Positions 791 to 49,109 of a DNA stretch of 64,000 bases are shown here, one piece after another; the stretch's first letter is position 1, and each line of letters opens with the position of its first letter. The stretch spans positions 10,748 to 74,747 of the forward strand of contig CANQUB010000001.1 of the NCBI GenBank assembly GCA_947626955.1, given 5' to 3'. Both the position numbers and the translations under genes were made by a program. This DNA comes from an uncultured Clostridia bacterium (lineage in GTDB: Bacteria > Bacillota > Clostridia > Christensenellales > UBA1242). Below the pieces are notes generated by a model. That model was not told the DNA's origin. It saw only the letters and a program-made list of their open reading frames with translations, and searched no databases.

Positions 791-1234
791 ATGTCTTATA
801 TGAAGAACATTACTATTTACACCGACGGAGCCTGTTCAGGCAATCCCGGCAAAGGCGGATGGGGCTGCGTTCTAATTTATAAAGACCATAAAAAAGAGCT
901 GTCGGGCGGGGAAGAGAACACCACCAACAATCGCATGGAGTTGACCGCCGTCATAAAAGCCCTTGAGCAGCTGAACCAGCCTTGCAATGTGGAGTTATAC
1001 AGCGATTCGGCCTATGTGGTGAACGCCTTTACCGAGGGCTGGCTGGAAAACTGGAAAAAGACCAATTTTAAAAGCTCCAGCAAAGAGCCGGTCAAAAATG
1101 TCGACCTTTGGCAAATGCTGGATCTTCTCACTCAAAAGCACAATGTGACCTTCAACAAAGTAAAAGGCCACGCCGACAATGAGCTTAACAATAGGTGCGA
1201 TGAGCTGGCGACAAGTGCAATAAACAAAATATAA
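791..1234 (+). CDS. rnhA: ribonuclease HI
   Basis: 147 aa with type-1 RNase H motifs: IYTDGACSGNPGKGGWG, NNRMELTA, YSDSAYV, VKGHADNELNNRCDELA. Confidence 0.9.
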   Translation: MSYMKNITIYTDGACSGNPGKGGWGCVLIYKDHKKELSGGEENTTNNRMELTAVIKALEQLNQPCNVELYSDSAYVVNAFTEGWLENWKKTNFKSSSKEPVKNVDLWQMLDLLTQKHNVTFNKVKGHADNELNNRCDELATSAINKI

Positions 1235-1360
1235 AACGCTCATTTTTACCTCTCTGGCTTTGTTTCTGCAAGGCGGTGCAAGACAGTCATTTATGTTTAA
1301 TAAACTCCTGCCTTGACCCCACCTTGCGAGCCTCGCCATAAAGGCAAATATGAGCGTTTT
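1233..1360 (+). repeat. copy E1 of a ~125-nt imperfect-palindromic structured element (candidate ncRNA or 3'UTR element, or MITE)
   Basis: Outer arms aacgctcattttt / aaatatgagcgtt pair. The core 1278-1318 matches the reverse complement of 43022-43061 at 40 of 40 aligned positions, with one extra A in E1. It starts at the rnhA stop codon. Confidence 0.55.
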
Positions 1361-3555: not shown

Positions 3556-4227
3556 ATGATAACACCCGATTTAATTACACGCTCTAGCCGCCACACCCTG
3601 AGTTTGTCCATTCTAAAGGACGGGCAGGTGGTGGTCAAAGCCCCACTAAAAATGCCACGCGAGGCCATAGACAAGTTCGTTTACGAAAAGCAAAACTGGA
3701 TACGCGAAAAGCTGGCCATAATCGAGCAGAACCGCCAAAAATATGACGAGATTTTGTCATACAAAAAATTCTTGCTATTTGGCAACCAGTACTCGCTAAA
3801 GCTGGCCGACGTCAAAAAAATAGAGACTTCGAGCGACCAAATGGTCATTTTAATGCCAAAGACCACCCCCGAAGACAAGATACTAACCCGCCTCAAGAGC
3901 TGGTATAAAAAGCAGGCCAAGATCATCCTTACCGAAAGGCTGGAATATATTTGCTCCAAAATAAAGCTGGTGCCTGCTTCCATGCGAATTTCGGACAGCA
4001 AGGGTAGGTGGGGAGCCTGCAACAGCAAGGGCAGTATCAGCTTCAATTTTAGAATTATCATGCTTGAGCCGGCCATAATCGACTACGTCATCGTCCATGA
4101 GCTATGTCACCTTGTTGAGATGAACCATAGCAAAAAGTTTTGGGCACTGGTCAACACCTTTTTGCCATCGGCCAACGCCTGCAAGGCCAGGATCAAGGAA
4201 TTTGGATTTTTGTTAAGCCTTTTTTGA
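3556..4227 (+). CDS. YgjP-like metal-dependent hydrolase (DUF45 / SprT-like)
   Basis: HELCHLVEMNHSKKFW zinc motif near the C-terminus. The ATG at 3556 (MITPDL..) is preferred over the TTG at 3529, which overlaps the GGGAGG Shine-Dalgarno sequence. Confidence 0.85.
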   Translation: MITPDLITRSSRHTLSLSILKDGQVVVKAPLKMPREAIDKFVYEKQNWIREKLAIIEQNRQKYDEILSYKKFLLFGNQYSLKLADVKKIETSSDQMVILMPKTTPEDKILTRLKSWYKKQAKIILTERLEYICSKIKLVPASMRISDSKGRWGACNSKGSISFNFRIIMLEPAIIDYVIVHELCHLVEMNHSKKFWALVNTFLPSANACKARIKEFGFLLSLF

Positions 4228-4267
4228 AAATATGAATAAAAAAAATTAAACACGCCATACTAAGACT

Positions 4268-4316
4268 AGATGGAACAAAGAAAAGCACATAAGTTTCTTT
4301 GCTCCATCTTTTTTTT
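4268..4316 (+). terminator. intrinsic terminator after the ygjP-like gene
   Basis: agatggaacaaagaaa pairs with tttctttgctccatct (one mismatch) and is followed by a T8 run. Confidence 0.7.
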
Positions 4317-4700
4317 GTGTCAGTCAACGTTATAAATTTAGCCAAGGTGGGTTATGATTATGTTGCATAGGTTGGTAGCCGGCTTTTTATCCCGTCTCTC
4401 GCCGCCTCTTACAACATGACGACCAACTGGATTAATATCATATGCAGCCAAACACCAAGCAGCACATTAACCAAACCAATTTACGCAACCAACAACACCA
4501 CACATAAAGATAGCTAAATAAAAATTTGGTACAATAAGGCAGTAGCACTTGAAAGCAATTTAGATATGACCAAGCCCTTCTTTAACAAAGATTAAAAGCT
4601 AAAACCCCTCTTTTTGCCCGACCCGAAAAAATTTTTCAGGTGGGGAGTGATAAACTTTGTTAAAAGTTATTCACCCGATTGTTAACAAGATTTCTAGAAT

Positions 4701-4730
4701 TTATTCGTAAAAGGCAGCTTTTACGAATAA
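4701..4730. repeat. perfect palindrome at the left junction (13-bp arms, 4-nt centre gcag); candidate att site or hairpin
   Basis: ttattcgtaaaag (4701-4713) gcag cttttacgaataa (4718-4730). The arms are exact reverse complements. Confidence 0.8.
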
Positions 4731-4783
4731 TTTCCGAGCTATTTGCAGTATATATCAACAATTAATGTATGTCAACAAATTTT

Positions 4784-4812
4784 TTGACTTTTTAAAAATA
4801 TTTTTATAAAAT
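4784..4812 (+). promoter_or_regulatory. sigma-A type promoter for the 69-aa plus-strand gene
   Basis: TTGACT (4784-4789), a 17-nt spacer, then TAAAAT (4807-4812). Confidence 0.5.
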
Positions 4813-4836
4813 ACTTTTAGGAGGAAAAAAAACAAA

Positions 4837-5046
4837 GTGGACATATTAAAAAAAATTTTAGCACCGATATCTAAATTTGTTCTAGAAATCTTTGCCGTAG
4901 TTGCATTTATAATACACACACAAATATATTACGGCAAAGATTACATGAAAACAAAAATAATCGGTGCTATATTTATAATTGCATTTATTGCAATTACAGC
5001 ATTTGAAATTTACTTTAAAATTACTGAACAAAAAAAGTCGGATTAA
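4837..5046 (+). CDS. small membrane protein (two TM helices), the only plus-strand gene of the element
   Basis: 69 aa with a GTG start 12 nt after AGGAGG. It has its own promoter and terminator. Hydrophobic segments are FVLEIFAVVAFIIHT and IIGAIFIIAFIAITAF. Confidence 0.5.
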   Translation: MDILKKILAPISKFVLEIFAVVAFIIHTQIYYGKDYMKTKIIGAIFIIAFIAITAFEIYFKITEQKKSD

Positions 5047-5066
5047 AACCCGACTTTTATTTTTTA
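5035..5066 (+). terminator. intrinsic terminator of the 69-aa gene
   Basis: aagtcgg pairs with ccgactt, followed by ttttatttttt. The stop codon lies in the loop. Confidence 0.6.
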
Positions 5067-5095
5067 TTCAAGAATTTTAAAGTAAATTACCCCTA

Positions 5096-5121
5096 GCTTG
5101 ACATTATTTATAATGTCAAGC
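5096..5121. repeat. perfect 11-bp/4-nt hairpin between the convergent 69-aa gene and rep
   Basis: gcttgacatta ttta taatgtcaagc. No U-tract on either strand. It is flanked by cccctagc at 5090 and 5141. Confidence 0.6.
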
Positions 5122-5154
5122 ACCACACAGTTCCAATGTGCCCCTAGCCGTTTG

Positions 5155-6030
5155 TTAAGAGTATATTGGACGTATTTTTCCAATTAAATTGTAGAACTCA
5201 TACTCACTTATGTCTAACATAGCACTTGTAAACATGAAAGGTTCTATCTTTTCTCGTTTAACTCTACCTAACATTTTTAAGTATAAATTAGAGTTTACAC
5301 TCTCTCTTAACAACATGATCAAGACCTTATCAGTATCATTAAGAGTGTATAAATCATACAAGTCAAGACTTTTGTAAAAGCGGACTTGTGGAATATGTGA
5401 CTTAAAATTCGAATAATCAAAGCTATCAAGAGTAATTTCAAGCCTAGTTAGATCATAATTAAGACCTTGTTCAAGCGTTTTGTTGTAAAGCTTAACAAAG
5501 CCGTTCGAGTTACGAACTCCAAGATATTCAGTCATATTGCCAAGATTATTGTGCTTTAAGTCCACATAAAAATTCTTTTTATATGACCTTAAATCTTTAA
5601 TTAAGCAAACATCTTCACGCCTTGCGGGCATATCTATGGCCAAATCAAAACGGACAAGCTCAAAACCAGCGACAGGAATTAAAGGCTTAATATAATTTAA
5701 AATGTCAAACAATGGAGAATATTGGAATAAACATTTATTCGGGTTAAATTCGATAAAGCAATTATCAAAATCGCTCTTTCTTACGCCATTAAAACCAAGA
5801 CCAAGGACAAAAGAGGAATTATTTTTTAATGTAATATTGACCATGAACTTATAAGAGAAATAAGCTCGACTTTCATAAACATGAAAGTCAAGACTACCAC
5901 CAAGAGACTTTTTATATAAAAAATTATTAAAGCCTTTCATGTGGTATTCGGGAAATCTAAAACGTAAACGCAACATATCACATGATAGTATATTGCCATT
6001 TTTATCAACAACACTAGCAAAATAGTCCAT
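5155..6030 (-). CDS. rolling-circle replication initiator, Rep_trans-like (RstA/RepC type)
   Basis: Motifs VRFDLAIDM, EYLGVRNS, KLYNKTLEQG and LTRLEITL resemble Rep_trans (PF02486) as I remember the family. The ATG at 6030 (MDYFASV) is preferred; the track ORF begins at a GTG at 6075 inside a hairpin. Confidence 0.6.
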   Translation of the reverse strand: MDYFASVVDKNGNILSCDMLRLRFRFPEYHMKGFNNFLYKKSLGGSLDFHVYESRAYFSYKFMVNITLKNNSSFVLGLGFNGVRKSDFDNCFIEFNPNKCLFQYSPLFDILNYIKPLIPVAGFELVRFDLAIDMPARREDVCLIKDLRSYKKNFYVDLKHNNLGNMTEYLGVRNSNGFVKLYNKTLEQGLNYDLTRLEITLDSFDYSNFKSHIPQVRFYKSLDLYDLYTLNDTDKVLIMLLRESVNSNLYLKMLGRVKREKIEPFMFTSAMLDISEYEFYNLIGKIRPIYS

Positions 6031-6069
6031 TCTATTACCTACCTTAATTTTGTAGAAAAATGCAAGGTA

Positions 6070-6251
6070 GGCCACCTCTTAGACAGAGGTGGCCTGAGGG
6101 GGTGCATAAGCACCACCCACCACCCCGACAACATCACAAAACATTTAAGCGTCAATGACTGGGAGACTTGCACAAACCATGAGGCTCGAAACAACCTCAA
6201 ACCGAATATAACAAAGTATTTAAGGGGCTGTTTATAGGGGCGAGCCCCTAT
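6070..6251. promoter_or_regulatory. GC-rich hairpin cluster in the phage intergenic region (candidate origin or packaging region)
   Basis: ggccacctct-tagac-agaggtggcc (6070-6094), ggtgc-ataa-gcacc (6101-6114) and ataggggc-ga-gcccctat (6234-6251). This is a locally GC/CA-rich island inside an AT-rich element. Confidence 0.4.
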
Positions 6252-6288
6252 TACCCCACTACGCACGCAAAATAAACGTTAAAAAGAA

Positions 6289-6444
6289 TTATTTATCCTC
6301 GCTAGCATTCTCGTCGGCTTTCTCTTCTTTTATAGACTTGTTACGGGCTTTACGTTCTTTAATTGCCAAAATAAGCTGGTAAATCTCATAACCGAGCCAA
6401 ACGAGCAAAGCTAAAAGACAAATTACTTTCAAAGCAGTTTTCAT
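6289..6444 (-). CDS. small single-TM protein (51 aa), not in the ORF track
   Basis: ATG at 6444, 6 nt after GGAGGTG. Sequence is MKTALKVICLLALLVWLGYEIYQLILAIKERKARNKSIKEEKADENASEDK. It follows the ATPase gene directly. Confidence 0.5.
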   Translation of the reverse strand: MKTALKVICLLALLVWLGYEIYQLILAIKERKARNKSIKEEKADENASEDK

Positions 6445-6447
6445 GCT

Positions 6448-7416
6448 TTACACCTCCTTTTTATTTGTAGTTTTTGGAATAAGTTTTTGTTTTGGAATTT
6501 TTAAAAGCTCATATCTTTTAAGTGAAGTATAGATATTATCCGAGCCATGAGGCACAGTGTTATATCTTTCCGAATAGCAATAAGTATCATATATTCGGTG
6601 GAAAGGCATGATACCCCATGTAAACTTCTCGTTATCTTCCCTATTGTTCATTTCAAGAATTTTTATGTCCTCACTAGTGGACATTGAACGAATTTGAACT
6701 TTATATAAAAACCAATACTTTTTAAAATTTTCAAGCAAAAACACTTTATTAAGTCGAACACGAACTTGCTTTACGATATTATCACTACACTGGTCAGTTA
6801 CTACTAGATAACCGCCTTGTGTGTAATGACGAAACAAACGCACAAACTCATCAAGACCGAGCAAAACATTCGGGTTAGCATATTCAAACTGGCTACACCA
6901 TGAACCGAATTCGTCAATAAAGACAATACTTAATTTTGCCAACCTATCTTGCAAAAGAATATGCTTTTCAGTGAGCTCAATGGAACTCTCTACATAATGT
7001 TTTACATTAGCCTTCTTAATGTTCAAACGAACAAAATCTTCATAAGGAATGTATTTTTCAAGTGAAAAAAGCTTATAGTAGCTTTCTTTAAGCTCTACAA
7101 CATTACAATTTTTGAAATATCTCTTCTTTACCTTTATAAAGACTGGAATTGAAGAGTAAAGCAAAGGTATATCTTTATTCAAAGCTTTTTTAAACTTTTT
7201 ATGGAAAAGGTTATAAATACGAGTTTTGAAATTAGACCACTTTACTTTAAAACGATTACGGCGTAACAGCTTTAAAGATATTTTAACTCCTCGAAGGGTC
7301 TTTCCGCTACCAAGGCCACCAACATAGCCGAAGGCATTATCAAATTTCTCGAAATATAATTTCAAGAAAATCCACAACACAACGACCAAAACAACAACTA
7401 AGATTATTACTAACAT
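6448..7416 (-). CDS. Zot/pI-like assembly ATPase with an N-terminal TM helix
   Basis: Walker A GGLGSGKT, Walker B LSIVFIDEFGSW, N-terminal TM MLVIILVVVLVVVLWIFL. AGGAG lies 8 nt upstream of the ATG. Confidence 0.6.
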   Translation of the reverse strand: MLVIILVVVLVVVLWIFLKLYFEKFDNAFGYVGGLGSGKTLRGVKISLKLLRRNRFKVKWSNFKTRIYNLFHKKFKKALNKDIPLLYSSIPVFIKVKKRYFKNCNVVELKESYYKLFSLEKYIPYEDFVRLNIKKANVKHYVESSIELTEKHILLQDRLAKLSIVFIDEFGSWCSQFEYANPNVLLGLDEFVRLFRHYTQGGYLVVTDQCSDNIVKQVRVRLNKVFLLENFKKYWFLYKVQIRSMSTSEDIKILEMNNREDNEKFTWGIMPFHRIYDTYCYSERYNTVPHGSDNIYTSLKRYELLKIPKQKLIPKTTNKKEV

Positions 7417-7427
7417 ATATTTAACTC

Positions 7428-7781
7428 CTAAATTAGAATTCCAACGAACATTTTGCCAGCAAGTTTAAACAAGAACAATAACATTTGAACGATATATACA
7501 AAGAACTTAAATATCCAAACAATAGCAAGAGCTATTGTCTTAATAACCGAAAAGACAGCCCTAATAGCCTTTAAAACGCCATTTGTATCGGCACTATATT
7601 CGGCATACTCTTCCCAAACAGTTTCAATATCATTGAACGTCGGAAACCTAGGCATATCTTCGGATGCAGCACTCAAATTAGTTATATAATTTTCAAAGCT
7701 GAAAGTTTTATCTTCCTTGTTATATGCGAAAAGTGCAAAAACCACTGACAAAATGAGCAAAAGTGATATTATTTTTTTCAA
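7428..7781 (-). CDS. secreted/membrane protein (117 aa), minor virion or assembly protein candidate
   Basis: TTG start overlaps the upstream TGA (TTGA) and has an AAAGGTGG Shine-Dalgarno sequence. It has a signal-like N-terminus and a hydrophobic C-terminal third. Confidence 0.5.
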   Translation of the reverse strand: MKKIISLLLILSVVFALFAYNKEDKTFSFENYITNLSAASEDMPRFPTFNDIETVWEEYAEYSADTNGVLKAIRAVFSVIKTIALAIVWIFKFFVYIVQMLLFLFKLAGKMFVGILI

Positions 7782-14664: not shown

Positions 14665-16227
14665 CTACGTTGCGGTGGCGACGGCGCGGGTTTCCCGAAT
14701 AATGTTAACCTTAATTTGGCCAGGATATTCAAGCTCGGCCTCGATCTTCTTGGCTATGTCTTTGGCAAGAACAATCATGCCGGCGTCGTCAACTTCTTCA
14801 GGCTTAACGGCAATACGAATTTCACGACCGGCCTGAATGGCGTAGGAAGTTTGCACGCCCTTAAAGCTGTTGGCAATCTCCTCAAGCTTTTCAAGACGCT
14901 TAACATAGGCATCAAGCGATTCACGCCTTGCCCCTGGCCTTGCACTGGAAATGGCGTCGGCCACTTGAACAAGCATGGCCTCGATGGATTTGTATTCAAC
15001 CCCACCATGATGGGCCTCGATGCAGTGGATGACCTCAGGGCTCTCCTTATACTTTTTGGCCACGTCAACGCCGATGGAAACGTGAGTTCCTTCCATCTCA
15101 AAGTCTAGCGCCTTGCCAATGTCGTGGAGCAGGCCTCCACGCTTTGCAACTGCCACATCGGCTCCAAGCTCACCCGCCAAAAGCCCGGCAAGATATGAGG
15201 TCTCAAGCGAATGCTTAAGTACGTTTTGGCCATAACTTGTGCGGTATTTCAGGCGGCCAAGAATCTTGATAAGCTCGGGATGAAGATTGAAAATTCCGGC
15301 CTCAAAAGCAGCGTTTTCGCCGGCCTCTTTAATGGTCTTTTCAATGTCTTTTTTGACCTTTTCAACGATGTCTTCTACCCTTGCTGGGTGGATTCGACCG
15401 TCGGTGATAAGCTTTTCAAGGGTCAGCCTTGCAACCTCGCGGCGGATTGGGTCAAAGCTTGATAAAATTACAGCCTCAGGGGTGTCGTCAACAATGAGGT
15501 CAACCCCGGTGGCAGTTTCGATTGCACGAATATTGCGGCCTTCACGCCCGATTATTCGGCCCTTCATTTCGTCATTTGGAAGAGGAACAGCGGTCACCGT
15601 CACCTCGGCAGTGTGGTCGGTAGCGCAGCGCTGAATTGCCAAAGTTATTATCTCTTTAGCTTTCTTTTCGCCCTCTTCACGAGCTTCGTTCTCGATGTCA
15701 CGAACAATTACGCCGGCCTCTTTTCTTGCGTCATCTTCGATGGATGCCACAAGCTGTTTTTTGGCCTCGGCCTGGGTAAGCCCCGACACTCTTTCAAGCT
15801 CTTTGTTGATGCCCTCAGCTTTTTTGTCTAGCTCTTTTTCACGGTTGACAAGATCTTGCTTGCCCTTTTCGATTTGGGCTTTAAGCTCGTCGGCCGTGGC
15901 AAGCTTTTTGTCTAGGCTCTCTTCCTTGCGGTCAAGAGCCTCTTCTCTTTGCACAACCCTATTCTCTAGGCGTTGCACCTCGGCACGACGCTCACGAATT
16001 TCGTCGTCCGATTGTTTTTTGAGTTTTAATGATTCTTCTTTTGCTTCAATTAGTGCCTCTTTTTTTAGAGTCTCTGCTTGTGCTTTAGCATCTTCAAGTG
16101 TTTTTTGTGCCTGGTTCAAAGTCTTACCAAAAGACTTCTTCAAAACGGCATAATAAGTCACTGTGCCAAGTAAAATGCCTACAACAAGAGCGACAACTAT
16201 GAGGCCTATTGCTAGTCCTGTGCTCAT
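14665..16227 (-). CDS. rny: ribonuclease Y
   Basis: 520 aa with an N-terminal TM, a coiled coil, a KH domain ([15 protein letters not shown]) and an HD domain (HSLETS..LLHDIGK). Confidence 0.95.
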
Positions 16228-35874: not shown

Positions 35875-35914
35875 AAAATGAATGATACTCGCTTGCTTTG
35901 TGAGCGAATTATTA

Positions 35915-35960
35915 GTTCCGCTGCACAAGTGCAGCGGAACTAAACAAGTCGCTCGCAACC
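35915..35960. repeat. hairpin + GTCGCTCGC motif, copy R-b
   Basis: gttccgctgcac-aa-gtgcagcggaac (35915-35940) followed by acaagtcgctcgcaacc (35944-35960). Confidence 0.5.
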
Positions 35961-41112: not shown

Positions 41113-42600
41113 TTAGCTCTCTTTTTTATTTGCGTCCGCTATTGCTTCGTTGGCGTACTGCTCTTTGAGTTTTTGGTACTTTTCATATTCTTCAGCCGGC
41201 AAATAGAGTTTTGACCTAATATTTTTTATTCCCGTACCTTCATAGATGTAGCCAAGTTTGGCAAAAAGGTCTTTCATGGAAATGGCGTTGTCAGCGCAAT
41301 ATTTCATGATAGGTTTCCACACCTTTTTGTCTTTCCAAAGCCCAGTTATTGGCTTGCCACGCTCAAAGTTTGCATCAACCAGCCGCCCAATCTCATAAAG
41401 ATTAATGGTTTTTATCGAGTGCTTTGTGCTGTTGTAGTGATAGCCAAAATATTCAAGCAGCGCCTGCATATTTGGAAATACATTGCCTGGATAGTAATGA
41501 CGAAAATATTGCAATCTCCTGTAAAGCTGTGGGTTGTCAGTAACAACATGGCTTATGCTGCAAGGTGCTTGGCCATATTTATATCTAAGCATGGTTCTTA
41601 AATAATCTTCATGGTCAACATCAAAATAGCGCATAGCAAGTTTGTAGCCAAAGCCGCCAACGTAGTCATAAAAGTTCTTCCCCTGCTCGGCAGCCTTGCG
41701 CTTTAATAGTGCAAAATAGTAGGCATTGTCGCGGATGGCATCGACATAGCCATCGCCATCGTTGTAGGATTCAAGAATATCCACAATGCCTTGCTCATCA
41801 AGCAAAGCCCTGGCCTTTCGGGTGTAACCTTCGGGCATTCCGGTTGGTGTCCTATATTCAACCTCAGGTAAGAACAAGTTGACGATTTCACCTATAGAGA
41901 TCCCATTTCTAACTGCAATTTGCACAAAGGTGTTGTATAACTGTGGTGCGCGTTCATTTAGATAAGAAATGCAGCCTTTTTCATCGGTGAGCTCATGTAA
42001 AGCGTCGCAAACAGCACTGTAGATCACAGGATTTCTAGTTATGAAGTTGGTGGAGTTCATGTCGTAGATAGAAGCATATTTGATATATTTATATGTCCCA
42101 TTTGGCACACCTAAAAATTGATTGATGGCCGTTTCAATGGAAACATCATTTTTCTTGGCAATTTGTCTAATGTACCCATAGGTCATAGGATAAGACTTGC
42201 TCAGTTCAAGCACTTCCCCGTTTTCATTGATACAATTTTTGATGTTTTCAACATGTATGCTTTTGTCAATTGTTTTGCCGCGATTTTGCGTTTTTACAAT
42301 ACCGCTATAGTCAAAATATCCAACAGCACTTATCTCATCCTCAACCGTTCTACCATAATGAAAGGCACGGGATTGGAGTACTTTTTGAAGACGCATATCC
42401 CTGTATAGATGTAGTTGCCCGTCAATGTTGACGTTTTTAAGTCTCTCTCGCATCTCTTCGTCAGTGATTTTAATTTTGTTTCCAGCCATGCTCCCGCGGA
42501 ACTGTTTTATAGCATTCATCACTTTAGATTCGTCAACCTTTTTGTACTGTTTATCCCTTCTAACAATATAATTTTCTTGTTTTTCACCACTTTTAGCCAT
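41113..42600 (-). CDS. hypothetical protein (495 aa) with five ~35-aa internal repeats
   Basis: The repeat pattern (P)xLYxxhxxxAxxxGhSxxxhhxxhG occurs at about aa 139, 218, 290, 352 and 425. No family recognised. It looks AT-richer than its neighbours. Confidence 0.7.
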   Translation of the reverse strand: MAKSGEKQENYIVRRDKQYKKVDESKVMNAIKQFRGSMAGNKIKITDEEMRERLKNVNIDGQLHLYRDMRLQKVLQSRAFHYGRTVEDEISAVGYFDYSGIVKTQNRGKTIDKSIHVENIKNCINENGEVLELSKSYPMTYGYIRQIAKKNDVSIETAINQFLGVPNGTYKYIKYASIYDMNSTNFITRNPVIYSAVCDALHELTDEKGCISYLNERAPQLYNTFVQIAVRNGISIGEIVNLFLPEVEYRTPTGMPEGYTRKARALLDEQGIVDILESYNDGDGYVDAIRDNAYYFALLKRKAAEQGKNFYDYVGGFGYKLAMRYFDVDHEDYLRTMLRYKYGQAPCSISHVVTDNPQLYRRLQYFRHYYPGNVFPNMQALLEYFGYHYNSTKHSIKTINLYEIGRLVDANFERGKPITGLWKDKKVWKPIMKYCADNAISMKDLFAKLGYIYEGTGIKNIRSKLYLPAEEYEKYQKLKEQYANEAIADANKKES

Positions 42601-42744: not shown

Positions 42745-42800
42745 AAACGGGCAGTTTGTTACCAAACTGCCCGTTTGGTTGCGAGCGACTTGTCGCTCGC
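42745..42800. repeat. hairpin + GTCGCTCGC motif, copy R-c
   Basis: aaacgggcagtttg-ttac-caaactgcccgttt (42745-42776) followed by ggttgcgagcgac-tt-gtcgctcgc (42777-42800). The 17-mer 42777-42793 is the reverse complement of 35944-35960. Confidence 0.5.
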
Positions 42801-42981
42801 TCCCACCTCTCCGCAAATAAAGCAACCTTTATAACAACAGCATCGAAACCTGACATTTGGTGACCAAACAGGTCTACCAAACATCAGTTTTCTTCGCTCT
42901 TGTCACAAATCTTGCCTTATTTGCTTCTTTGCAAGCACCAACTAATGGCCTAGGACAAGGCTTTTATAATCATAAAAAATA

Positions 42982-43106
42982 ATAGGGCTTAATTTGCGTC
43001 TCCACCAAGGCTCGACGAGTAGGGTCAAGGCAGGAGTTTATAAACATAAATGACTGTCTTGCCCTGCTTGGCAGAAACGCAGGCGAAAGCGTAAAATAAG
43101 CCCTAT
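42982..43106 (-). repeat. copy E2 of the ~125-nt structured element
   Basis: Outer arms atagggcttaattt / aaaataagccctat. The core is nearly identical to E1 in inverted orientation. Confidence 0.55.
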
Positions 43107-43113
43107 GCCGTAA

Positions 43114-43234
43114 GAAGGCTTAGTTTAGGCCTAGGACAAGGCAACAAAAAAATTCTAGGCACGGGGTTTATTGACATAAATCCCTGTCTAGAATTTTTGC
43201 AGTTAACGCAGTCCTAGGCCTGAAATAAGCCTTC
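43114..43234 (-). repeat. copy E3 of the ~125-nt structured element, abutting the yebC stop codon
   Basis: Nested stems gaaggcttagttt/gaaataagccttc, aggcctaggac/gtcctaggcct (perfect 11 bp) and ttctaggcacgggg/ccctgtctagaa. The apex is tttattgacataaa. Confidence 0.55.
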
Positions 43235-43954
43235 TTACTCGGCGTTGTGGTAAACCGATTGCACATCATCCAAATCATTCAAGGCGTCTTCCAGCTTTTC
43301 AACCGAGGCCATCTTCTCTTCATCAAGAGTGACAGTGTTGATTGGAACATATTCGTTTTCACTGGAGACAATCTCAAAGCCGGCAGCTTCAAATGCCTTG
43401 ACTGCGGCATGAAGTTGCTCGGACGAGGTGTAGACCACAAAGCACTCGTCTTCGGTCAAAACATCGTCGGCACCGGCATCAAGAGCCACAAGCATGACGT
43501 CGTCTTCGGTGAGGCCGTCCTTCTTATTGATTACAATAACTCCACGATATTGGAAGTTATACATAACGCTACCGCTAGCACCAAGGCTGCCGCCAAAGCG
43601 TGAGAAAATATGGCGAACATCGGCTGCTGTTCGATTCTTGTTATCGGTAAGGCAGTCCACAATGAAAGCCACGCCATTTGTTCCATATCCCTCGTATAGG
43701 CAAGGCTGATAGTTGTCGCCCTCGGTCTCGCCGCTAGCCTTTTTGATACTTCTTTGGATATTGTCATTTGGCATATTGTTTTGCTTAGCTTTTTGGATAA
43801 CATCATAAAGCTTGCTGTTGGTGTTAGGGTCAGGACCTCCGGCTTTTACGGCAACGGCAATTTCACGCCCAATCTTGGTGAAAATTTTGCCACGTGCTGC
43901 GTCGGCCTTATCTTTAGTTGCTTTGATGTTATGGAATTTAGAATGTCCGCTCAT
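43235..43954 (-). CDS. yebC: YebC/PmpR family DNA-binding transcriptional regulator
   Basis: MSGHSKFHNIKATKDKADAARGKIFTK.. is a canonical YebC N-terminus. 239 aa. Confidence 0.93.
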   Translation of the reverse strand: MSGHSKFHNIKATKDKADAARGKIFTKIGREIAVAVKAGGPDPNTNSKLYDVIQKAKQNNMPNDNIQRSIKKASGETEGDNYQPCLYEGYGTNGVAFIVDCLTDNKNRTAADVRHIFSRFGGSLGASGSVMYNFQYRGVIVINKKDGLTEDDVMLVALDAGADDVLTEDECFVVYTSSEQLHAAVKAFEAAGFEIVSSENEYVPINTVTLDEEKMASVEKLEDALNDLDDVQSVYHNAE

Positions 43955-44799: not shown

Positions 44800-44833
44800 T
44801 CAACATTGGCTTTTTATTGAGTGCTTAAAAAAT

Positions 44834-45190
44834 TTATTTTGCAAGGGCTGCATTAACTTTGTCTGCAATGTCTTTAAAAGCAGCTTTATCGTTAACAGCA
44901 AGGTCAGCAAGAACTTTGCGGTTAAGTTCGATATTGGCAAGTTTTAGGCCATGCATCATCTTGCTGTAAGAAAGGCCATACTCTCTTGCAGCGGCATTGA
45001 TTCTTGCAATCCAGAGCGAACGCATATCTCTTTTCTTGTTCTTTCTTCCTACATATGCATAGCTATCGCTCTTCATAACAGCTTCGCGGGCAACTCTATA
45101 AAGCTTGCTCTTGGCACCTCTATAGCCCTTTGAAAGCTTGCGAATTTTTACTCTTTTCTTGTTGGCATTAACGCCTCTTTTAATTCTCAT
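44834..45190 (-). CDS. rplT: 50S ribosomal protein L20
   Basis: [34 protein letters not shown].. Confidence 0.97.
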
Positions 45191-45203
45191 TGTCCTTCAC
45201 TCC

Positions 45204-45404
45204 TTAGTCCTGATTTCCGACAAGTTTCTTAATTGTCTTCTCTTGGGTTGTTGAAACATATGCATTGCTTCTAAGATGACGCTTACGACCTGTCTCCTTC
45301 TTTGTTAGAATATGGCGTTTGTTTTGATGACCACGCTTTACTTTTCCGCCTTTAAGAACATTAAATCTCTTCTTTGCGGCACTGTTGTTTTTTTGCTTTG
45401 GCAT
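45204..45404 (-). CDS. rpmI: 50S ribosomal protein L35
   Basis: [36 protein letters not shown].. Confidence 0.95.
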
Positions 45405-45421
45405 TTTCGTTCTCCTTTAAT

Positions 45422-45937
45422 TTATTTTTTGACTTTTGGGTTCAAAATGACAACTACATTTCTACCCTCAACCTTAGGCTCTTTGTCTTTTATGGCGTAC
45501 TCTTGCACCTGCTCGCAAAAAGCATTGACAATCTCAATACCCTTGGCGAAGTAGGCTTGTTGCCTGCCACGCATCCTCAAAGCCACCTTAACCTTGTTGC
45601 CACTTTGCAAAAATTTAATGGCGTTTTTGGCTTTGATGTCTATGTCGTGCTGCTCAATGGTCATGGACAGCTGAACTTCTTTAAGCTCAACAATCTTTTG
45701 ATTTTTCCTGGCCTCTTTTTCTTTCTTGGCCTTATCGAACATAAACTTGCCATAGTCCATAATTCGGCAAACTGGCGGAACGGCATTTGGAGAAATTTTT
45801 ACAAGGTCTTTGCCGGCTTTGTCTGCAAGCTCGTTTGCCTCACGAGCACTCATAAGCCCAAGCATTTCCCCGTTTTCTCCAATAACTCTAACCTCACGGT
45901 CGGTTATATCGCTGTTTATCTGATGTTCTTGTTTTAT
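45422..45937 (-). CDS. infC: translation initiation factor IF-3, ATA start codon
   Basis: The conserved N-terminus IKQEHQINSDITDREVRVIGENGEMLG lies upstream of the first ATG in frame. The ATA at 45937-45935 is 7 nt after GGGAGGA. The result is 171 aa. Confidence 0.9.
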   Translation of the reverse strand: MKQEHQINSDITDREVRVIGENGEMLGLMSAREANELADKAGKDLVKISPNAVPPVCRIMDYGKFMFDKAKKEKEARKNQKIVELKEVQLSMTIEQHDIDIKAKNAIKFLQSGNKVKVALRMRGRQQAYFAKGIEIVNAFCEQVQEYAIKDKEPKVEGRNVVVILNPKVKK

Positions 45938-45944
45938 GGCTGTA

Positions 45945-46145
45945 TCCTCCCAAAAGTTTTTGCTTTAAACGAAGATAAAGGCTGGAAGCATACCACTCCC
46001 AGCCATGAAATCACGCTTTTAGCCTTAAGGCCATACGCAAATTCTAACGCCCGATGTCTTGCTACACCGAAGCGAAAATAACTGTTTTACCCAAACAAAA
46101 TCTTTCATTCGGTTGGGGGAAAGTGGTCTTTCTCTTGTTTTAAGC
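45945..46145 (-). promoter_or_regulatory. infC-rpmI-rplT leader with attenuator hairpin (L20-leader type)
   Basis: A ~200-nt leader. The hairpin ggctgggagtggtatgcttccagcc (46004-45980) is followed by uuuaucuucguuu just before the infC Shine-Dalgarno sequence. The analogy is to the Bacillus L20-controlled leader. Confidence 0.5.
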
Positions 46146-46151
46146 GTTGTT

Positions 46152-46180
46152 ATATTATCACCTTACACTATAATTGTCAA
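46152..46180 (-). promoter_or_regulatory. infC operon promoter
   Basis: TTGACA (46180-46175), a 17-nt spacer, then TAATAT (46157-46152) with TGa immediately upstream (extended -10). Confidence 0.6.
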
Positions 46181-46185
46181 GTGTT

Positions 46186-48087
46186 TTATCTAACCTTTTT
46201 GTCGATCTCGTCTTTCATTTGCTTTATGACATCTTTAAGCTGCAGACCGCCAAGCTCGACATTGCCACGCTTTCTTATAGATACTGTTCCCTCGTCGGCC
46301 TCTTTTTCGCCAACTATGAACATATAAGGAATCTTTTGCATTTGCGCCGAGCGAATCTTGTAGCCAATCTTCTCGCCGCGGGTGTCTAGTTCGGTCTTAA
46401 TGCCGGCATCTTCAAGCTTCTTAGCCACTTTCTTTGCGTACTCTTCGCTCTTCTCACTGACATTCATGACTATTGCCTGAACGGGCGCTAGCCACAATGG
46501 GAAAGCCCCGGCAAAGTGCTCGGTTATGATACCAAAGAATCTTTCAACCGAACCGAATATAACTCTATGCAGCATGATTGGTTCTTTTCTTGACCCGTCT
46601 TTGTCCACATACTCAAGCCCAAAACGCTTTGGAAGCTGCATATCAAGCTGGATGGTTCCGCATTGCCATGTGCGGCCGATGGCGTCTTTGATGTGAATAT
46701 CTATCTTTGGCCCATAGAAAGCTCCGTCACCCTCGTTGATGACATAGTCCTTTCCAATATGCTTTAAGGCATTTTTAAGGCAGGTTTCGGCATGCTCCCA
46801 CTCTTTTATTGTTCCAATGTGCTTTGCTGGCATGGTCGAAAGCTCAAGGTGATATTCAAGTCCAAACACGCTGTAAACTCGGTCAACAAGATGAATAATG
46901 TTGGCAATCTCGCTCTCAATTTGGTCAGGGGTCATGAATATGTGCGCATCGTCTTGAGTGAAGCAGCGAACCCTAAACAGGCCGTGCAATGTTCCGCTGG
47001 CCTCGTGGCGATGAACCTTTCCAAGCTCGGCCACGCGAAGTGGGAACTCCTTGTATGAATGGATACGCTCTTTATAAAATAGCATTCCGCCTGGACAATT
47101 CATTGGCTTTACGGCAAAAGTGTCGCTTTCAACCTTAAATGTGTACATATTCTTCTTGTAGTGATCCCAGTGGCCGCTCATTTCCCAAAGTTTGCGGTTT
47201 AGGGCAATTGGAGTGGTTATTTCAACGTAGCCGGCCTTCTTATGCTCTTCACGCCAAAAGTCTATGAGAGTGTTTATAATGGTCTGCCCCTTTGGCATGA
47301 AAAATGGCATGCCGGGTGCATAGTCAGACAGGAAGAACAAATCCAACTCTTTTCCGAGCTTGCGGTGGTCACGCTTCTCGGCCTCTTCTAGCATTTTGAA
47401 GTATTCTTCCATCTCGCTGGCCTTGTCGAACACAACGCCATAGATACGGGTGAGCATCTTGTTTTTCTCATCCCCTCTCCAATAAGCACCGGCAAGTTTA
47501 GTCAGCTTAAAGGCCTTGATCATGCCGGTTGAGCGAAGGTGTGGCCCGCGGCAAACATCCTCAAAGTCGCCCTGGTGATAAATGGTTACAGTCTCATTTT
47601 TGTCGATGGCGTCGATAAGCTCAATCTTGTATGGCTGGTTCTCCTTTTTAGCGCGCTCCAAAGCCTCCTGCCTTGTCACAACCTCACGAGTGATTGGGAA
47701 GTTGGCCTTTATTATCTTCTTCATCTCAGCCTCAATCTTGGCAAGGTCATCATTGTTTATTGGGGTTTTGAACTCAAAGTCATAATAAAACCCGTCGTCG
47801 GTAGCTGGGCCGATTGAAAGCTTGGCATTTGGATAAATGCTCATAACGGCCTGAGCCAAAACATGGGCGGTGGTGTGGCGCATAACCATCTTGGCCTCGG
47901 GGTCTTTGCTGGTTATTATTTGCACTTCGCAGTCGTGGTCAAGCTTTAAGTTTAGGTCAGCAAGCTTGCCGTCTACCTTTCCGCAAATGGCCATTCTTGC
48001 CAGACCCTCTGAAATGCTGGCTGCAATTTCGTAGACGCTGGTTCCCTCTTTATACTCTCTTACTTGGTCTCTTAGTTTAATTTTCAT
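46186..48087 (-). CDS. thrS: threonyl-tRNA synthetase
   Basis: 633 aa with TGS, an editing domain (HTTAHVLAQA), a class II core (HRHEASG, FTQDDAHIF) and an anticodon-binding domain. Confidence 0.97.
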   Translation of the reverse strand: MKIKLRDQVREYKEGTSVYEIAASISEGLARMAICGKVDGKLADLNLKLDHDCEVQIITSKDPEAKMVMRHTTAHVLAQAVMSIYPNAKLSIGPATDDGFYYDFEFKTPINNDDLAKIEAEMKKIIKANFPITREVVTRQEALERAKKENQPYKIELIDAIDKNETVTIYHQGDFEDVCRGPHLRSTGMIKAFKLTKLAGAYWRGDEKNKMLTRIYGVVFDKASEMEEYFKMLEEAEKRDHRKLGKELDLFFLSDYAPGMPFFMPKGQTIINTLIDFWREEHKKAGYVEITTPIALNRKLWEMSGHWDHYKKNMYTFKVESDTFAVKPMNCPGGMLFYKERIHSYKEFPLRVAELGKVHRHEASGTLHGLFRVRCFTQDDAHIFMTPDQIESEIANIIHLVDRVYSVFGLEYHLELSTMPAKHIGTIKEWEHAETCLKNALKHIGKDYVINEGDGAFYGPKIDIHIKDAIGRTWQCGTIQLDMQLPKRFGLEYVDKDGSRKEPIMLHRVIFGSVERFFGIITEHFAGAFPLWLAPVQAIVMNVSEKSEEYAKKVAKKLEDAGIKTELDTRGEKIGYKIRSAQMQKIPYMFIVGEKEADEGTVSIRKRGNVELGGLQLKDVIKQMKDEIDKKVR

Positions 48088-48099
48088 ATTTTTCCCTCC

Positions 48100-48316
48100 T
48101 TAAAAATAAAAAGTCCCAACAAAACAAAATGTTTTGTAAGGACGAATTTGTGATCCGTGGTTCCACCTTACTTGCCAAAAACTTGGCCACTCATTAGGGT
48201 GAATTATCTTTTTTATAAGGGTGGTTTCATTCTTTTAGCCTGCAAAGCACCCTTTCAGCCACAAGGCGCTCTCTCTTTTGCCACTTTCAAAGAACTACTT
48301 GTTCCTTAGATAATAC
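48100..48316 (-). promoter_or_regulatory. T-box leader (riboswitch) of thrS, specifier ACC (Thr)
   Basis: On the minus strand: an AGAGAG box; a specifier context gaaugaaACCa (codon at 48225-48223); the T-box sequence aagguggaaccacgg (48170-48156); and the terminator guccuuacaaaaca/uguuuuguugggac (48143-48113) followed by a U-run. Confidence 0.8.
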
Positions 48317-48322
48317 ATTGGT

Positions 48323-48351
48323 AGTATATGCCCACAAAATTTTTTTGTCAA
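48323..48351 (-). promoter_or_regulatory. thrS promoter
   Basis: TTGACA (48351-48346, overlapping the ytxC stop), a 17-nt spacer, then TATACT (48328-48323). Confidence 0.6.
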
Positions 48352-49109
48352 GAGTTTTGTTTCAAAACGCTAACTTTCCCGTCAAATAATGAAGAAATAT
48401 ATGCTGTGAGCTCGCTATCTACAATATCGCTATGCAAAATAATCTTTTCAGGAGCAAGGCTGATAAGCTCGGTAAGCACCCTAATTTTGCTGTTGTCGTC
48501 TTTTTCTTTATATGACAATTTAAAAATTTCATTGCCGCTTTCGCCCACCGCCCAAATGCTGCCCGGGCTGTAGTGCACATGCACCTCTCCCATCTCGGTT
48601 TCGCTGGTCAAAATGAGAAACTTCATAAGTTCCATAAAGCTGCCACTCATTATAAGATAGCTGGAATTTTCACTGACCAAATTGCAAATTTCTTGCCACC
48701 TCTTTTCAAGCTCCCACAATCTAAAATTATAGAGGCTGTCAATCAAAATTTCTCGGCAGGGTTCGAGCTTGGACTTTATTAGTGCCTTATCCCCCGCTTT
48801 ATCAAACATGGTGAGGGCTTTTATAAATGTGGCACGAGTCACCGAGCTGGACAGGGCGAGTTTTAAATGTTTTTCGAGATACTGCTCTTTATACGAGCGA
48901 ATGATAACCTCGGCCACGGCGTCAAACACCGCACCAAGCACCACGTCTTTCTTATCCTCACTGACTGCAAGGGCAAGCTTGACCCGCTTGTCAAACTCCT
49001 CGCACACCATAATACCATGGTGGCTTTTGATGGTGGGGCGAAGGCGTTTTATGAGAAAAGTGATGTCACTAGATTTGGCACTATTTGTGCTGATAGTGAG
49101 TTCAAACAT
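48348..49109 (-). CDS. ytxC: YtxC-like sporulation protein
   Basis: 253 aa located immediately upstream of thrS, as in B. subtilis ytxC-thrS. The assignment rests mainly on synteny and size. Confidence 0.55.
   Translation of the reverse strand: MFELTISTNSAKSSDITFLIKRLRPTIKSHHGIMVCEEFDKRVKLALAVSEDKKDVVLGAVFDAVAEVIIRSYKEQYLEKHLKLALSSSVTRATFIKALTMFDKAGDKALIKSKLEPCREILIDSLYNFRLWELEKRWQEICNLVSENSSYLIMSGSFMELMKFLILTSETEMGEVHVHYSPGSIWAVGESGNEIFKLSYKEKDDNSKIRVLTELISLAPEKIILHSDIVDSELTAYISSLFDGKVSVLKQNS

Follow-up and report, generated by a model that had tools for sequence, protein, structure and literature searches.

Palindromic elements in the window

The window analyzed here is a 64,000-nt stretch of contig CANQUB010000001.1 (positions 10,748 to 74,747, forward strand) from an uncultured Clostridia bacterium. 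It contains five copies (E0 to E4) of a family of long palindromic repeats that lie at the 3' ends of rnhA, rny, and yebC. E1 (positions 1233 to 1360; subfamily 1) adjoins rnhA, and E4 (14538 to 14670; subfamily 3) adjoins rny, which encodes RNase Y. Downstream of yebC are E3 (43110 to 43238; subfamily 2), E2 (42982 to 43106; subfamily 1), which is in tandem with E3, and E0 (42813 to 42924), a 112-nt copy of a sister type. An initial annotation of this sequence had listed E1, E2, and E3 as long imperfect hairpins; its positions for E1 and E2 hold, and E3 ends at 43238 instead of 43234. It had missed E4, E0, an orphan fragment, and the overlap of copies with stop codons.

We use "top strand" for the better-folding strand of a copy (i.e., the complement of the strand that shows an A.C mismatch at the apex), which is the minus strand for E1 and E0 and the plus strand for E2, E3, and E4. 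Folded as RNA, the top strands of E1, E2, and E3 had energies of -67.6 kcal/mol (z, -11.1), -59.6 kcal/mol (z, -7.8), and -75.1 kcal/mol (z, -13.5), compared with -47.5, -47.8, and -63.0 kcal/mol for the respective other strands. These energies were reached by none of 200 dinucleotide shuffles, and all three hairpins are thus real and far more stable than shuffled sequence. For E0, the energies were -57.2 kcal/mol on the minus strand and -33.9 kcal/mol on the plus strand. A covariance model built from nine copies and run with speed filters off detected no copies beyond these five in the window. It scored E1 at 107 bits (39 on the plus strand), E2 at 98.9 bits (40 on the minus strand), E3 at 124.7 bits, E4 at 103 bits, and E0 at 35 bits; the last two were also found by an inverted-repeat scan.

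The arms of E0 are homologous to those of E4 (GGCAAGATTTG.GACAAGAGCGAAGAAAAC; GGCAAGATTTG...AAGAGCGAAGAAAAC), and its apical hairpin differs. Relatives of E0 occur in loci from other assemblies, which are designated by L numbers (L001, 2129 to 2237 and 2760 to 2869; L021, 10775 to 10982). Between E0 and E2 is an orphan arm fragment, GGCCTAGGACAAGGC (42947 to 42961, plus strand), that is identical (15/15) to the E3 arm at 43128 to 43142. Judging from this sequence match, the fragment is probably the remnant of a further, broken copy or else the product of a rearrangement.

Two ordinary hairpins delimit the regions that hold these copies. E1 is located between the rnhA stop codon and a plain bidirectional terminator hairpin, AAAACGCCCATATTT-GA-ATATGGGCGTTTT (1389 to 1423), which follows a PadR-like gene (stop codon, 1424 to 1426). 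Similarly, E3, E2, and E0 are located between the yebC stop codon and an ordinary terminator-like hairpin, AAACGGGCAGTTTGG..CAAACTGCCCGTTT followed by TTT (42745 to 42776, minus strand), that closes an ~490-nt yebC 3' region and that the covariance model also matched as a generic hairpin. Given this position upstream of the final terminators, E1, E3, E2, and E0 are likely cotranscribed with the upstream gene.

Architecture and covariation

The elements are 110 to 133 nt long and form a single imperfect hairpin, with TAG...CTA outermost in most copies. From the ends inward, the shared layout runs from the outer stem (P1) through a one-base irregularity to a second stem (P2), followed by an asymmetric internal loop, an inner stem, and an apical core. 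The sequence of P1 varies from copy to copy and can be completely different between copies within one genome; the start of P2 is semiconserved, (T)TAG-RGGC-AAGATTT. The internal loop carries RAGGC on its 5' side and GCAGWAAC on its 3' side, with GCA instead in the E4 subfamily. The apical core, AGGCA(C)GGRGTTTAT-loop-ACATAAAT(GA/CC)CTGTCT, is a conserved 32-nt segment, represented in E2 by AGGCAGGAGTTTAT-loop-ACATAAATGACTGTCT (43028 to 43059, plus strand) and by its counterparts in E3 (43157 to 43189), E1 (~1280 to 1312, minus strand), and E4 (~14587 to 14622). Within it are two G.T wobbles, both conserved, and a GA/AG tandem, for which some copies have GGG/CCC plus a bulge. Alignment columns 50 to 54/82 to 86 and 59 to 64/71 to 78 are invariant or nearly so.

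Three subfamilies recur across genomes (E1/E2/L001, E3/L006/L003, and E4/L004/L007/L005/L002). Within the first, the cores of E1 and E2 are identical except for one extra base, and the outer arms differ as had been described (GCTCAT/ATGAGC in E1 versus GCTTA-/-TAAGC in E2 and E3). The perfect 11-bp stem of E3, AGGCCTAGGAC/GTCCTAGGCCT, is also present. The initial annotation had further placed CTGCCT on the right flank of the apex in all copies, which does not apply to E3, where the flank is CGTGCCT; the E3 apex, read on the top strand, has a bulged C and GGG/CCC in place of the tandem GA/AG of E1 and E2. In E4, the apical stem GTCGTAT/ATACGAC is a fully compensated replacement of the GTTTAT/ATAAAT of the others.

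Base pairing was counted over 13 top-strand copies, with the consensus structure also obtained from RNAalifold. Standard pairs filled 94.4% of the cells, compared with 70.1% after column shuffling and 37 to 48% when pairing partners were slid. Double compensatory changes were present in 34 of the 48 pairs (shuffle mean, 25.2), and 0 of 500 shuffles reached the observed values. Up to 4 to 5 pair types occurred per position, and the outer-stem columns covaried with 3 to 5 types. The proposal that structure is more conserved than sequence is thus borne out. Because variable stem positions are flanked on both sides by conserved segments, nested insertion into unrelated hairpins cannot explain all of this covariation.

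No described RNA family matched the elements: a Rfam search of the whole window gave 0 matches at gathering thresholds, in line with the initial annotation, and for the E2/E3 region, with E values up to 10 allowed, only generic eukaryotic microRNA and small nucleolar RNA hairpins were returned, far below threshold.

Strand asymmetry

The top strand was the more stable one in 13/13 copies, by 4.6 to 24 kcal/mol, and likewise in 3 further E0-type copies. In the stem cells of the top strand, G.U pairs outnumbered A.C mismatches by 44 to 8, and by 21 to 8 when the two conserved wobble columns were left out; the consensus structure was derived on the top strand, which favors that strand somewhat. 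Covariance-model scores were 99 to 125 bits on the top strand and 39 to 68 bits on the other. The apical A.C mismatch that had been reported as common to the copies exists on the mRNA strand of the neighboring gene, and on the opposite strand it is one of the conserved G.T wobbles. The wobble bias, together with the conserved G.A pairs and bulges, is what would be expected of a strand that folds while single-stranded.

Terminator-like apex

In 9 of the 13 copies, an inner hairpin of 41 to 45 nt is bracketed by an A-run (5 to 8 nt) and a T-run (4 to 7 nt); the runs are A8 and T6 in E4 and A7 and T5 in E3. The folding energies of these inner hairpins are -17 to -27 kcal/mol on the top strand and -12 to -21 kcal/mol on the bottom strand. 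Of the two runs, the one that would appear as U in the transcript of the gene itself (5 to 8 T) is at least as long as the other in 8 of the 9 copies. By its predicted fold, then, the bracketed apex looks like a bidirectional intrinsic terminator. In E1 and its homologue in L025, P1 itself reads AAAACGC...GCGTTTT.

Stop codon position and orientation

At every site where a copy adjoins a gene (11 sites, or 10 with E1 and its L025 homologue taken as one), an open reading frame (ORF) on the strand opposite to the top strand ends within the 3' arm of P1, 52 to 64 nt from the element center. The probability that all sites would share one orientation by chance is ~0.001 to 0.002. In the window, the outer stem of E1 begins inside the rnhA TAA stop (1232 to 1234, plus strand), that of E3 includes the yebC TAA stop (43235 to 43237, minus strand) and the last base of the final codon, and that of E4 includes the rny TAG stop (14665 to 14667, minus strand) and the last codon. 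E2 has a TAG at its gene-sense start, yet no ORF ends there. Further sites include seven genes in loci from metagenome-assembled genomes (MAGs), among them the seryl-tRNA synthetase (SerRS) gene serS, as well as, in L022, the orthologue of E4 and, in L025, the homologue of E1 (PadR). We take two of the ORFs in the MAG loci to encode ribosomal protein L1 (rplA) and GreA (greA).

The stop codon is TAG at 5/10 sites, and the element ends read TTAG, ATAG, GTAG (in E4 only), GTAAG, TTTAA, or AAAAC. Pairing usually includes 1 to 3 nt of the last codons, and in one case 10 nt. No protein is shortened: the C terminus of RNase Y reads ...ATAT* with or without the element, and that of YebC reads ...NAE* both in the window and in a relative whose site is empty.

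Given that the stop codon is inside P1 on the strand opposite to the top strand, the mRNA of the adjacent gene would carry the weaker, bottom-strand hairpin. This bears on the possibility that the elements act in cis as RNA of the untranslated 3' region (3'UTR), where a hairpin starting at the stop codon would shield the mRNA 3' end from exonucleases or affect translation termination or mRNA decay, with spread being secondary. Such effects on translation termination or decay have reportedly been found for stop-proximal REPs of Escherichia coli, with ribosome stalling and trans-translation as the route (Liang, Rudd, and Deutscher, 2015). A 3'UTR role would suit the fixed stop codon phase and gene orientation, the probable cotranscription of copies upstream of the final terminators of rnhA and yebC, and the strong conservation of E1 and E4, including a compensated pair between the last rny codon and the distal arm (see below). 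However, it is not straightforward, since the gene's transcript is expected to carry the other strand rather than the best-folding one: the mRNA-sense strand folds worse in 13/13 copies, its wobbles become A.C, and its tandem G.A becomes U.C/C.U. Moreover, wherever the apex terminates transcription, transcripts would end before the distal arms, and the outer stems could not form; E0, E2, and E3 are also dispensable in a close relative. We therefore consider a primary role as 3'UTR RNA unlikely.

Two candidate explanations, one for the wobble asymmetry and one for the orientation of the copies, were rejected. A transcription-linked C-to-T bias would be expected to produce wobbles on the sense strand, and the opposite was observed. 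A pure replication-strand rule conflicts with the orientation of E1, which is opposite to that of E2 to E4 within one monotonic GC-skew domain. The gene rule and the replication rule are confounded, because E1 is the only copy beside a probable lagging-strand gene.

The asymmetry could alternatively mean that the folded top strand itself is functional, either as an antisense small RNA (sRNA) that covers the stop codon region or as a single-stranded DNA (ssDNA) hairpin site, similar to attC or to the ends of IS200/IS605 elements, for a recombinase, nuclease, or replication protein. The G.U bias, the conserved wobbles, tandem G.A and loop bases, the conservation of orthologues over their whole length, and the gain and loss of the interior at hairpin loops (see below) would all fit. 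However, no conserved promoter was found in or next to the elements (the TTGGCA-18-TAAAAT inside E2 is not kept in the other copies), so that an autonomous sRNA gene is not supported, and we know of no top-strand transcription in codirectional gene pairs. Nor did the window and related loci (240 kb) yield a Y1 transposase, and the reversed orientation of E1 within one replichore is not expected either. As for attC, these sites resemble the present elements in being imperfect palindromes of similar length that keep structure over sequence and have one active strand; they directly follow an ORF, often overlapping its stop codon, in a fixed orientation. Identity with attC was rejected nonetheless: the R''/R' boxes (RYYYAAC/GTTRRRY) are absent from the ends, which read nTAG...CTAn, the apex is conserved, the neighbors (rnhA, yebC, rny, and serS) are housekeeping genes in synteny rather than cassettes, and no integrase or attI context is present. 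On balance, a function of the folded top strand itself appears decidedly unlikely.

Distribution

A scan of 185,579 species genomes with an exact pattern for the core identified seven true loci in four uncultured Clostridia MAGs (two rabbit-gut "Lapin" bins, UMGS1774, and one labeled Thermoanaerobacterales). The same scan of JGI/ENA metagenome contigs added three contigs, all with the UMGS1774 locus. The covariance-model search that the initial annotation had suggested recovered, in addition to the five copies in the window, members of the family in 4 further MAG species, located at a different gene in every case. The exact-core pattern had no match in viral contigs, and blastn of E2 plus E3 had none in plasmids and phages. 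Since copies were found only in a few uncultured Clostridia MAGs, the family appears confined to a narrow lineage. The window has 5 copies in 64 kb, and in a close relative none was found in 28.6 kb (L020 plus L021) and one each in L022 and L025.

Gain, loss, and inversion among relatives

This close relative is represented by a metagenome assembly (Logan ERR14656722) in which YebC, RNase Y, and RnhA are 94%, 98%, and 86% identical to those of the window and the gene order is the same. At the yebC site of the relative (L020), GAGTAA is directly followed by an ordinary terminator; E3, E2, and E0 are absent, and the intergenic gap is 165 nt, compared with 635 nt in the window. At the rny site, the relative keeps E4 at the same place (L022, 11558 to 11690), and two rabbit MAGs (L023 and L024) have plain terminators and no E4. 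The homologue of E1 in L025 is 91% identical to E1, but the whole element is inverted and adjoins the PadR stop codon instead of the rnhA stop codon, so that the orientation rule is satisfied in both genomes. Gains, losses, and inversions of whole elements thus take place over short evolutionary times.

Plain hairpins mark some of the sites that lack an element. In the window, the plain hairpin at 1389 to 1423 occupies the same place as the L025 element and has a stem equal to the P1 of that element. The serS element is present in L023, and L024 has instead the terminator AAATGGCAAC-CATT-GTTGCCATTT, whose stem equals the P1 of the L023 element. Because plain hairpins share their stems with filled sites, an interior of ~95 nt seems to be gained or lost at hairpin loops. 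A general rule that P1 is the stem of a preexisting terminator was rejected; it fits the PadR and serS sites and is not visible at yebC and rny.

Tandem and nested copies also occur, and some apices carry other repeats (L001, 2392 to 2930; L021, 10775 to 10982). One of these nested cases has normal element ends and ~200 nt of foreign sequence at its apex, another has an E0-type unit in the apex of half an E4-type element, and a third is an E0-type copy with an ~100-nt insert of small hairpins (GGGGGAAAAGTGGTGGGCTCGCTCACC...). In a distant relative (GCA_948835695.1; L026, 10441 to 10568), an unrelated palindrome of 128 nt extends exactly from the PadR stop codon to the rnhA stop codon; A- and T-runs flank its apex, which lacks the conserved core.

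Conservation of orthologous copies

The window and the close relative differ at 41% of four-fold sites in rny and at 44% in yebC, and their mean identity is 79.5% over 34 kb of alignable DNA (95th percentile, 90%). Against this background, 126 of 133 positions (94.7%) match between the E4 orthologues, and 116 of 127 (91.3%) match between E1 and its homologue. E4 and E1 are the only noncoding 100-nt windows with at least 93% identity; the others at this level fall in rny, yebC, rplT, rpmI, infC, and one segment that we take to be recA. The sequences that flank E4 show the usual divergence. Of the seven differences in the E4 pair, one is a synonymous third-base change in the last RNase Y codon (ACG to ACC), for which a C-to-G change in the distal arm compensates. 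In the E1 pair, a T-A pair of P1 became C-G. Such conservation, with compensated changes, would hardly be expected of selfish DNA under neutral decay and, as far as sequence comparison can tell, argues that at least E4 and E1 are under purifying selection on both sequence and pairing.

These data bear on two further explanations. In the first, terminator-derived palindromes without any function lengthen, shorten, and remain self-complementary by replication template switching (quasipalindrome correction) and central deletion, with occasional gene conversion accounting for the similarity between loci. The plain hairpins that share a stem with filled sites, the extension of pairing into gene sequence, and the different palindrome in the PadR-rnhA gap of L026 are all compatible with it. 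Yet template switching should erase the bulges, wobbles, and asymmetric loops that are conserved across genomes, and it leaves unexplained the strand bias, a 32-nt core common to unrelated loci in several species, and an identity of 91 to 95% against a background of ~80%. We regard it as very improbable.

In the second, the elements are ordinary miniature inverted-repeat transposable elements (MITEs) that an insertion sequence (IS) transposase moves in trans, with insertion at TA or at TAG/TAA (IS630- or IS5/Harbinger-like); only insertions at stop codons would survive, and covariation would arise because the two ends track one consensus. Element ends are often TAG...CTA or TAA...TTA, TAG is the stop codon at 5/10 sites, and tandem and nested copies exist. 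Presence also differs between relatives (E0, E2, and E3 are absent from L020, E4 is absent from L023 and L024, and the serS copy is in L023 only). However, the arms covary away from any consensus, and conserved terminal inverted repeats are lacking, with the outer stems of E1 to E4 differing completely within one genome. With random TA or TAG targets, many insertions would further be expected in intergenic DNA remote from stop codons, with either orientation, which was not seen at the 11 sites, and the orthologues are conserved far above the neutral expectation. Of the marks by which the initial annotation would have recognized a MITE, presence/absence polymorphism was found, but no near-identical copies and no target-site duplication distinguishable from the inverted ends were seen. 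We judge an ordinary MITE to be quite unlikely.

Comparison with known repeat families

Several known families share features with these elements. The GTAG termini of REPs often supply the TAG stop codon of flanking ORFs (PMC3733652), and a REPIN is a pair of REPs, one inverted relative to the other, that folds into a long hairpin (PMC3337134). The present family resembles both in being interspersed and extragenic, mostly downstream of ORFs or between convergent ORFs, in forming long imperfect hairpins with the tags outermost (110 to 133 nt, TAG...CTA, as in the inverted pairs of REPINs), in building mosaics with small hairpins as in BIMEs, and in its long persistence within lineages. It differs in that a REP unit is a GC-rich, GTAG/CGTC-tagged hairpin of 20 to 40 nt, whereas no short GC-rich self-hairpin was seen in the individual arms here; in that the fixed GTAG is replaced here by nTAG or TAA and is missing in E1; and in that the apex rather than the ends is the most conserved part and gene orientation is strict. 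REPs usually number tens to hundreds per genome and, as REPINs, are mobilized by RAYTs, Y1 transposases of the IS200/IS605 type whose gene the repeats usually flank. To our knowledge, neither REPs nor RAYTs have been described for this Clostridia clade. The words "Firmicutes" and "Clostridi" appear nowhere in the text of a 2013 REP survey (PMC3733652).

The pneumococcal SPRITE repeat is terminator-like and enriched at 3' ends, with no target duplication or transposase known and with co-option as a terminator suggested (PMC3049150). Like the present family, it is a Firmicute repeat in which a U-rich tract follows a long stem; it is located between convergent genes and has AAAA/TTTT terminal repeats. 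Here, a stem-loop with a U tract was found in 9/13 copies, and all gene-adjacent copies overlap the stop codon. SPRITE consists of an 18-bp stem and a long U tract, compared with a multistem palindrome of 50 bp here, and is located near 3' ends, whereas the elements here are phased on the stop codon. The text consulted reports neither a strand-specific wobble bias nor above-background conservation for SPRITE (PMC3049150).

Elements such as bcr1, ERIC, Correia/NEMIS, RUP, and BOX are likewise 100 to 170 nt long, foldable, cotranscribed, and strain variable. They differ from the present family in having recognizable terminal inverted repeats, target duplications, and copies that are usually much more alike, none of which was seen here. 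The target duplication is TTTAT for bcr1 and TA for RUP and Correia. In ordinary bidirectional intrinsic terminators, an A-run, a GC-containing hairpin, and a T-run follow stop codons, as they do here, and hairpins of this kind are present at empty orthologous sites; the elements additionally have ~45 bp of further palindrome, a conserved 32-nt core, and an AT-rich apical stem, all common to unrelated genes. Compensatory base changes have been reported for bcr1 of the Bacillus cereus group (PMC3184786). The combination of a conserved apex, strict stop codon phase and orientation, an antisense wobble bias, and orthologues conserved far above background is unlike any of these families.

Interpretation

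Given the subfamilies, the hairpin mosaics, the 3'-end location, the TAG-coincident ends, and the compensatory changes, we favor, with about even confidence, the interpretation that the elements form a lineage-restricted, REP/REPIN- or SPRITE-like family of palindromic repeats that would spread at terminator hairpins and be retained as a module at gene 3' ends. At hairpins that follow stop codons, the whole element or at least an interior of ~95 nt would be gained and lost, and the mobilizing agent would probably recognize a folded single strand, which would explain why wobbles, tandem G.A pairs, and bulges are kept on the better-folding strand. Once in place, the element may serve as the 3'-end module of the gene by providing bidirectional termination and insulation or a protective hairpin that caps the 3' end, and some copies would then be retained by purifying selection. 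The initial annotation had proposed a functional RNA or ssDNA hairpin rather than a simple MITE. The presence of a better-folding strand and the apparent selection on some copies agree with the first half of that proposal; the implied opposition to a mobile repeat fails, since the family behaves as an interspersed repeat.

Several observations weigh against this interpretation. Regarding spread, no strongly conserved terminal repeat is present (TAG at only 5/10 ends, GTAG only in E4), and no direct target-site duplication separable from the palindromic ends was found at yebC, rny, serS, or PadR/rnhA. Searches with phmmer, using approximate IS608/IS200 TnpA queries, found no Y1 transposase or RAYT in the ORF set of the window plus 25 other loci, 240 kb in all; this is a weak negative, because one gene per genome would easily be missed. 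The gain and loss data are explained equally well by insertion into hairpin loops and by central deletion of palindromes. Selfish spread also does not predict conservation of 91 to 95%, which host function fits better; conversely, the absence of E0, E2, and E3 from the close relative suits a dispensable repeat better than a host role. Regarding the proposed module, subfamily 1 (E1, E2, and L001) has no A- and T-runs around the apex, a separate ordinary terminator ends the yebC region, and the terminator activity of the elements themselves is a prediction from their fold. Relative to the adjacent gene, the strand that folds better is the antisense one, and a 3'UTR RNA function would leave the wobble asymmetry unexplained. 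Finally, the sample is small (~11 independent sites, all on MAG or metagenome contigs).

A more novel reading, which we consider unlikely, is that these are more than selfish repeats and make up a host-selected class of stop-anchored structured elements that function through the folded, gene-antisense strand, either as template-strand DNA or as antisense RNA. If true, a 130-nt hairpin that pairs the stop and last codons with a distal arm would represent a new device for 3'-end control or insulation that is modular and can be copied between genes.

Other repeats and neighboring genes

A second, small repeat is found beside the large elements: a hairpin, GCGAGCGAC-TTGT-CGCTCGC, often followed by TCCCACCTCTCC. 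It occurs at 42778 to 42801, 14509 to 14530, and 35890 to 35960 of the window, at 11703 to 11722 of L022, and at ~2722 to 2745 of L001; a further hairpin has inserted into the loop of the copy at 35890 to 35960 and splits it. Two perfect hairpins of a single type, each of 15 bp, are located at 14474 to 14505 and 35912 to 35943 (TTCGTTCCGCATCGC/GCGATGCGGAACGAA and TTAGTTCCGCTGCAC/GTGCAGCGGAACTAA). The former ends 2 nt before the start codon of an M19 peptidase gene (13593 to 14471, minus strand), at the expected ribosome-binding site. The close relative has repeated hairpins of the forms TCTCCCC-loop-GGGGAGA and GGTGCG-loop-CGCACC at 11700 to 12040 of L022 and 674 to 750 of L025, within the corresponding intergenic regions. 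Turnover of these 3' regions is very rapid even between genomes with 98% identical RNase Y.

Downstream of the E0 to E3 array is a 495-amino-acid ORF (41113 to 42600, minus strand) whose synteny between yebC and ruvC is kept; its counterpart in the relative (L020, 10886 to 12370) has no Pfam domain on record in that genome's annotation. Near infC-rpmI-rplT (~44800 to 48500), Rfam identified no leader or T-box, which is unexpected for a Firmicute-like genome. In L020, thrS is located just upstream of infC. Positions 4000 to 11000 of the window are AT rich (G+C content, 33 to 39%, versus ~45% elsewhere) and contain long palindromes (e.g., 5007 to 5088, 4880 to 4949, and 10621 to 10785), possibly reflecting an island or a different class of repeats. 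One of the rabbit MAGs (L023, 2244 to 6607) has three extra genes between rny and the M19 peptidase gene, including one for a 770-amino-acid TIR_2 plus LRR_5 protein; they are absent from the window and the other relatives and may represent a small defense island.

Implications

Two practical consequences follow from these elements. They break assemblies, as several loci end inside a copy, and covariation-based screens can take such repeats for noncoding RNA genes. The elements would constitute a previously undescribed repeat family, from an uncultured gut Clostridia lineage, that unites repeat behavior, covariation, exact phasing on stop codons, and above-neutral conservation of single copies, which usually occur apart from one another. 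As such, they offer a natural system for studying how REP-like repeats spread without an obvious transposase and whether terminators and 3' hairpins are exchanged between genes as modules.

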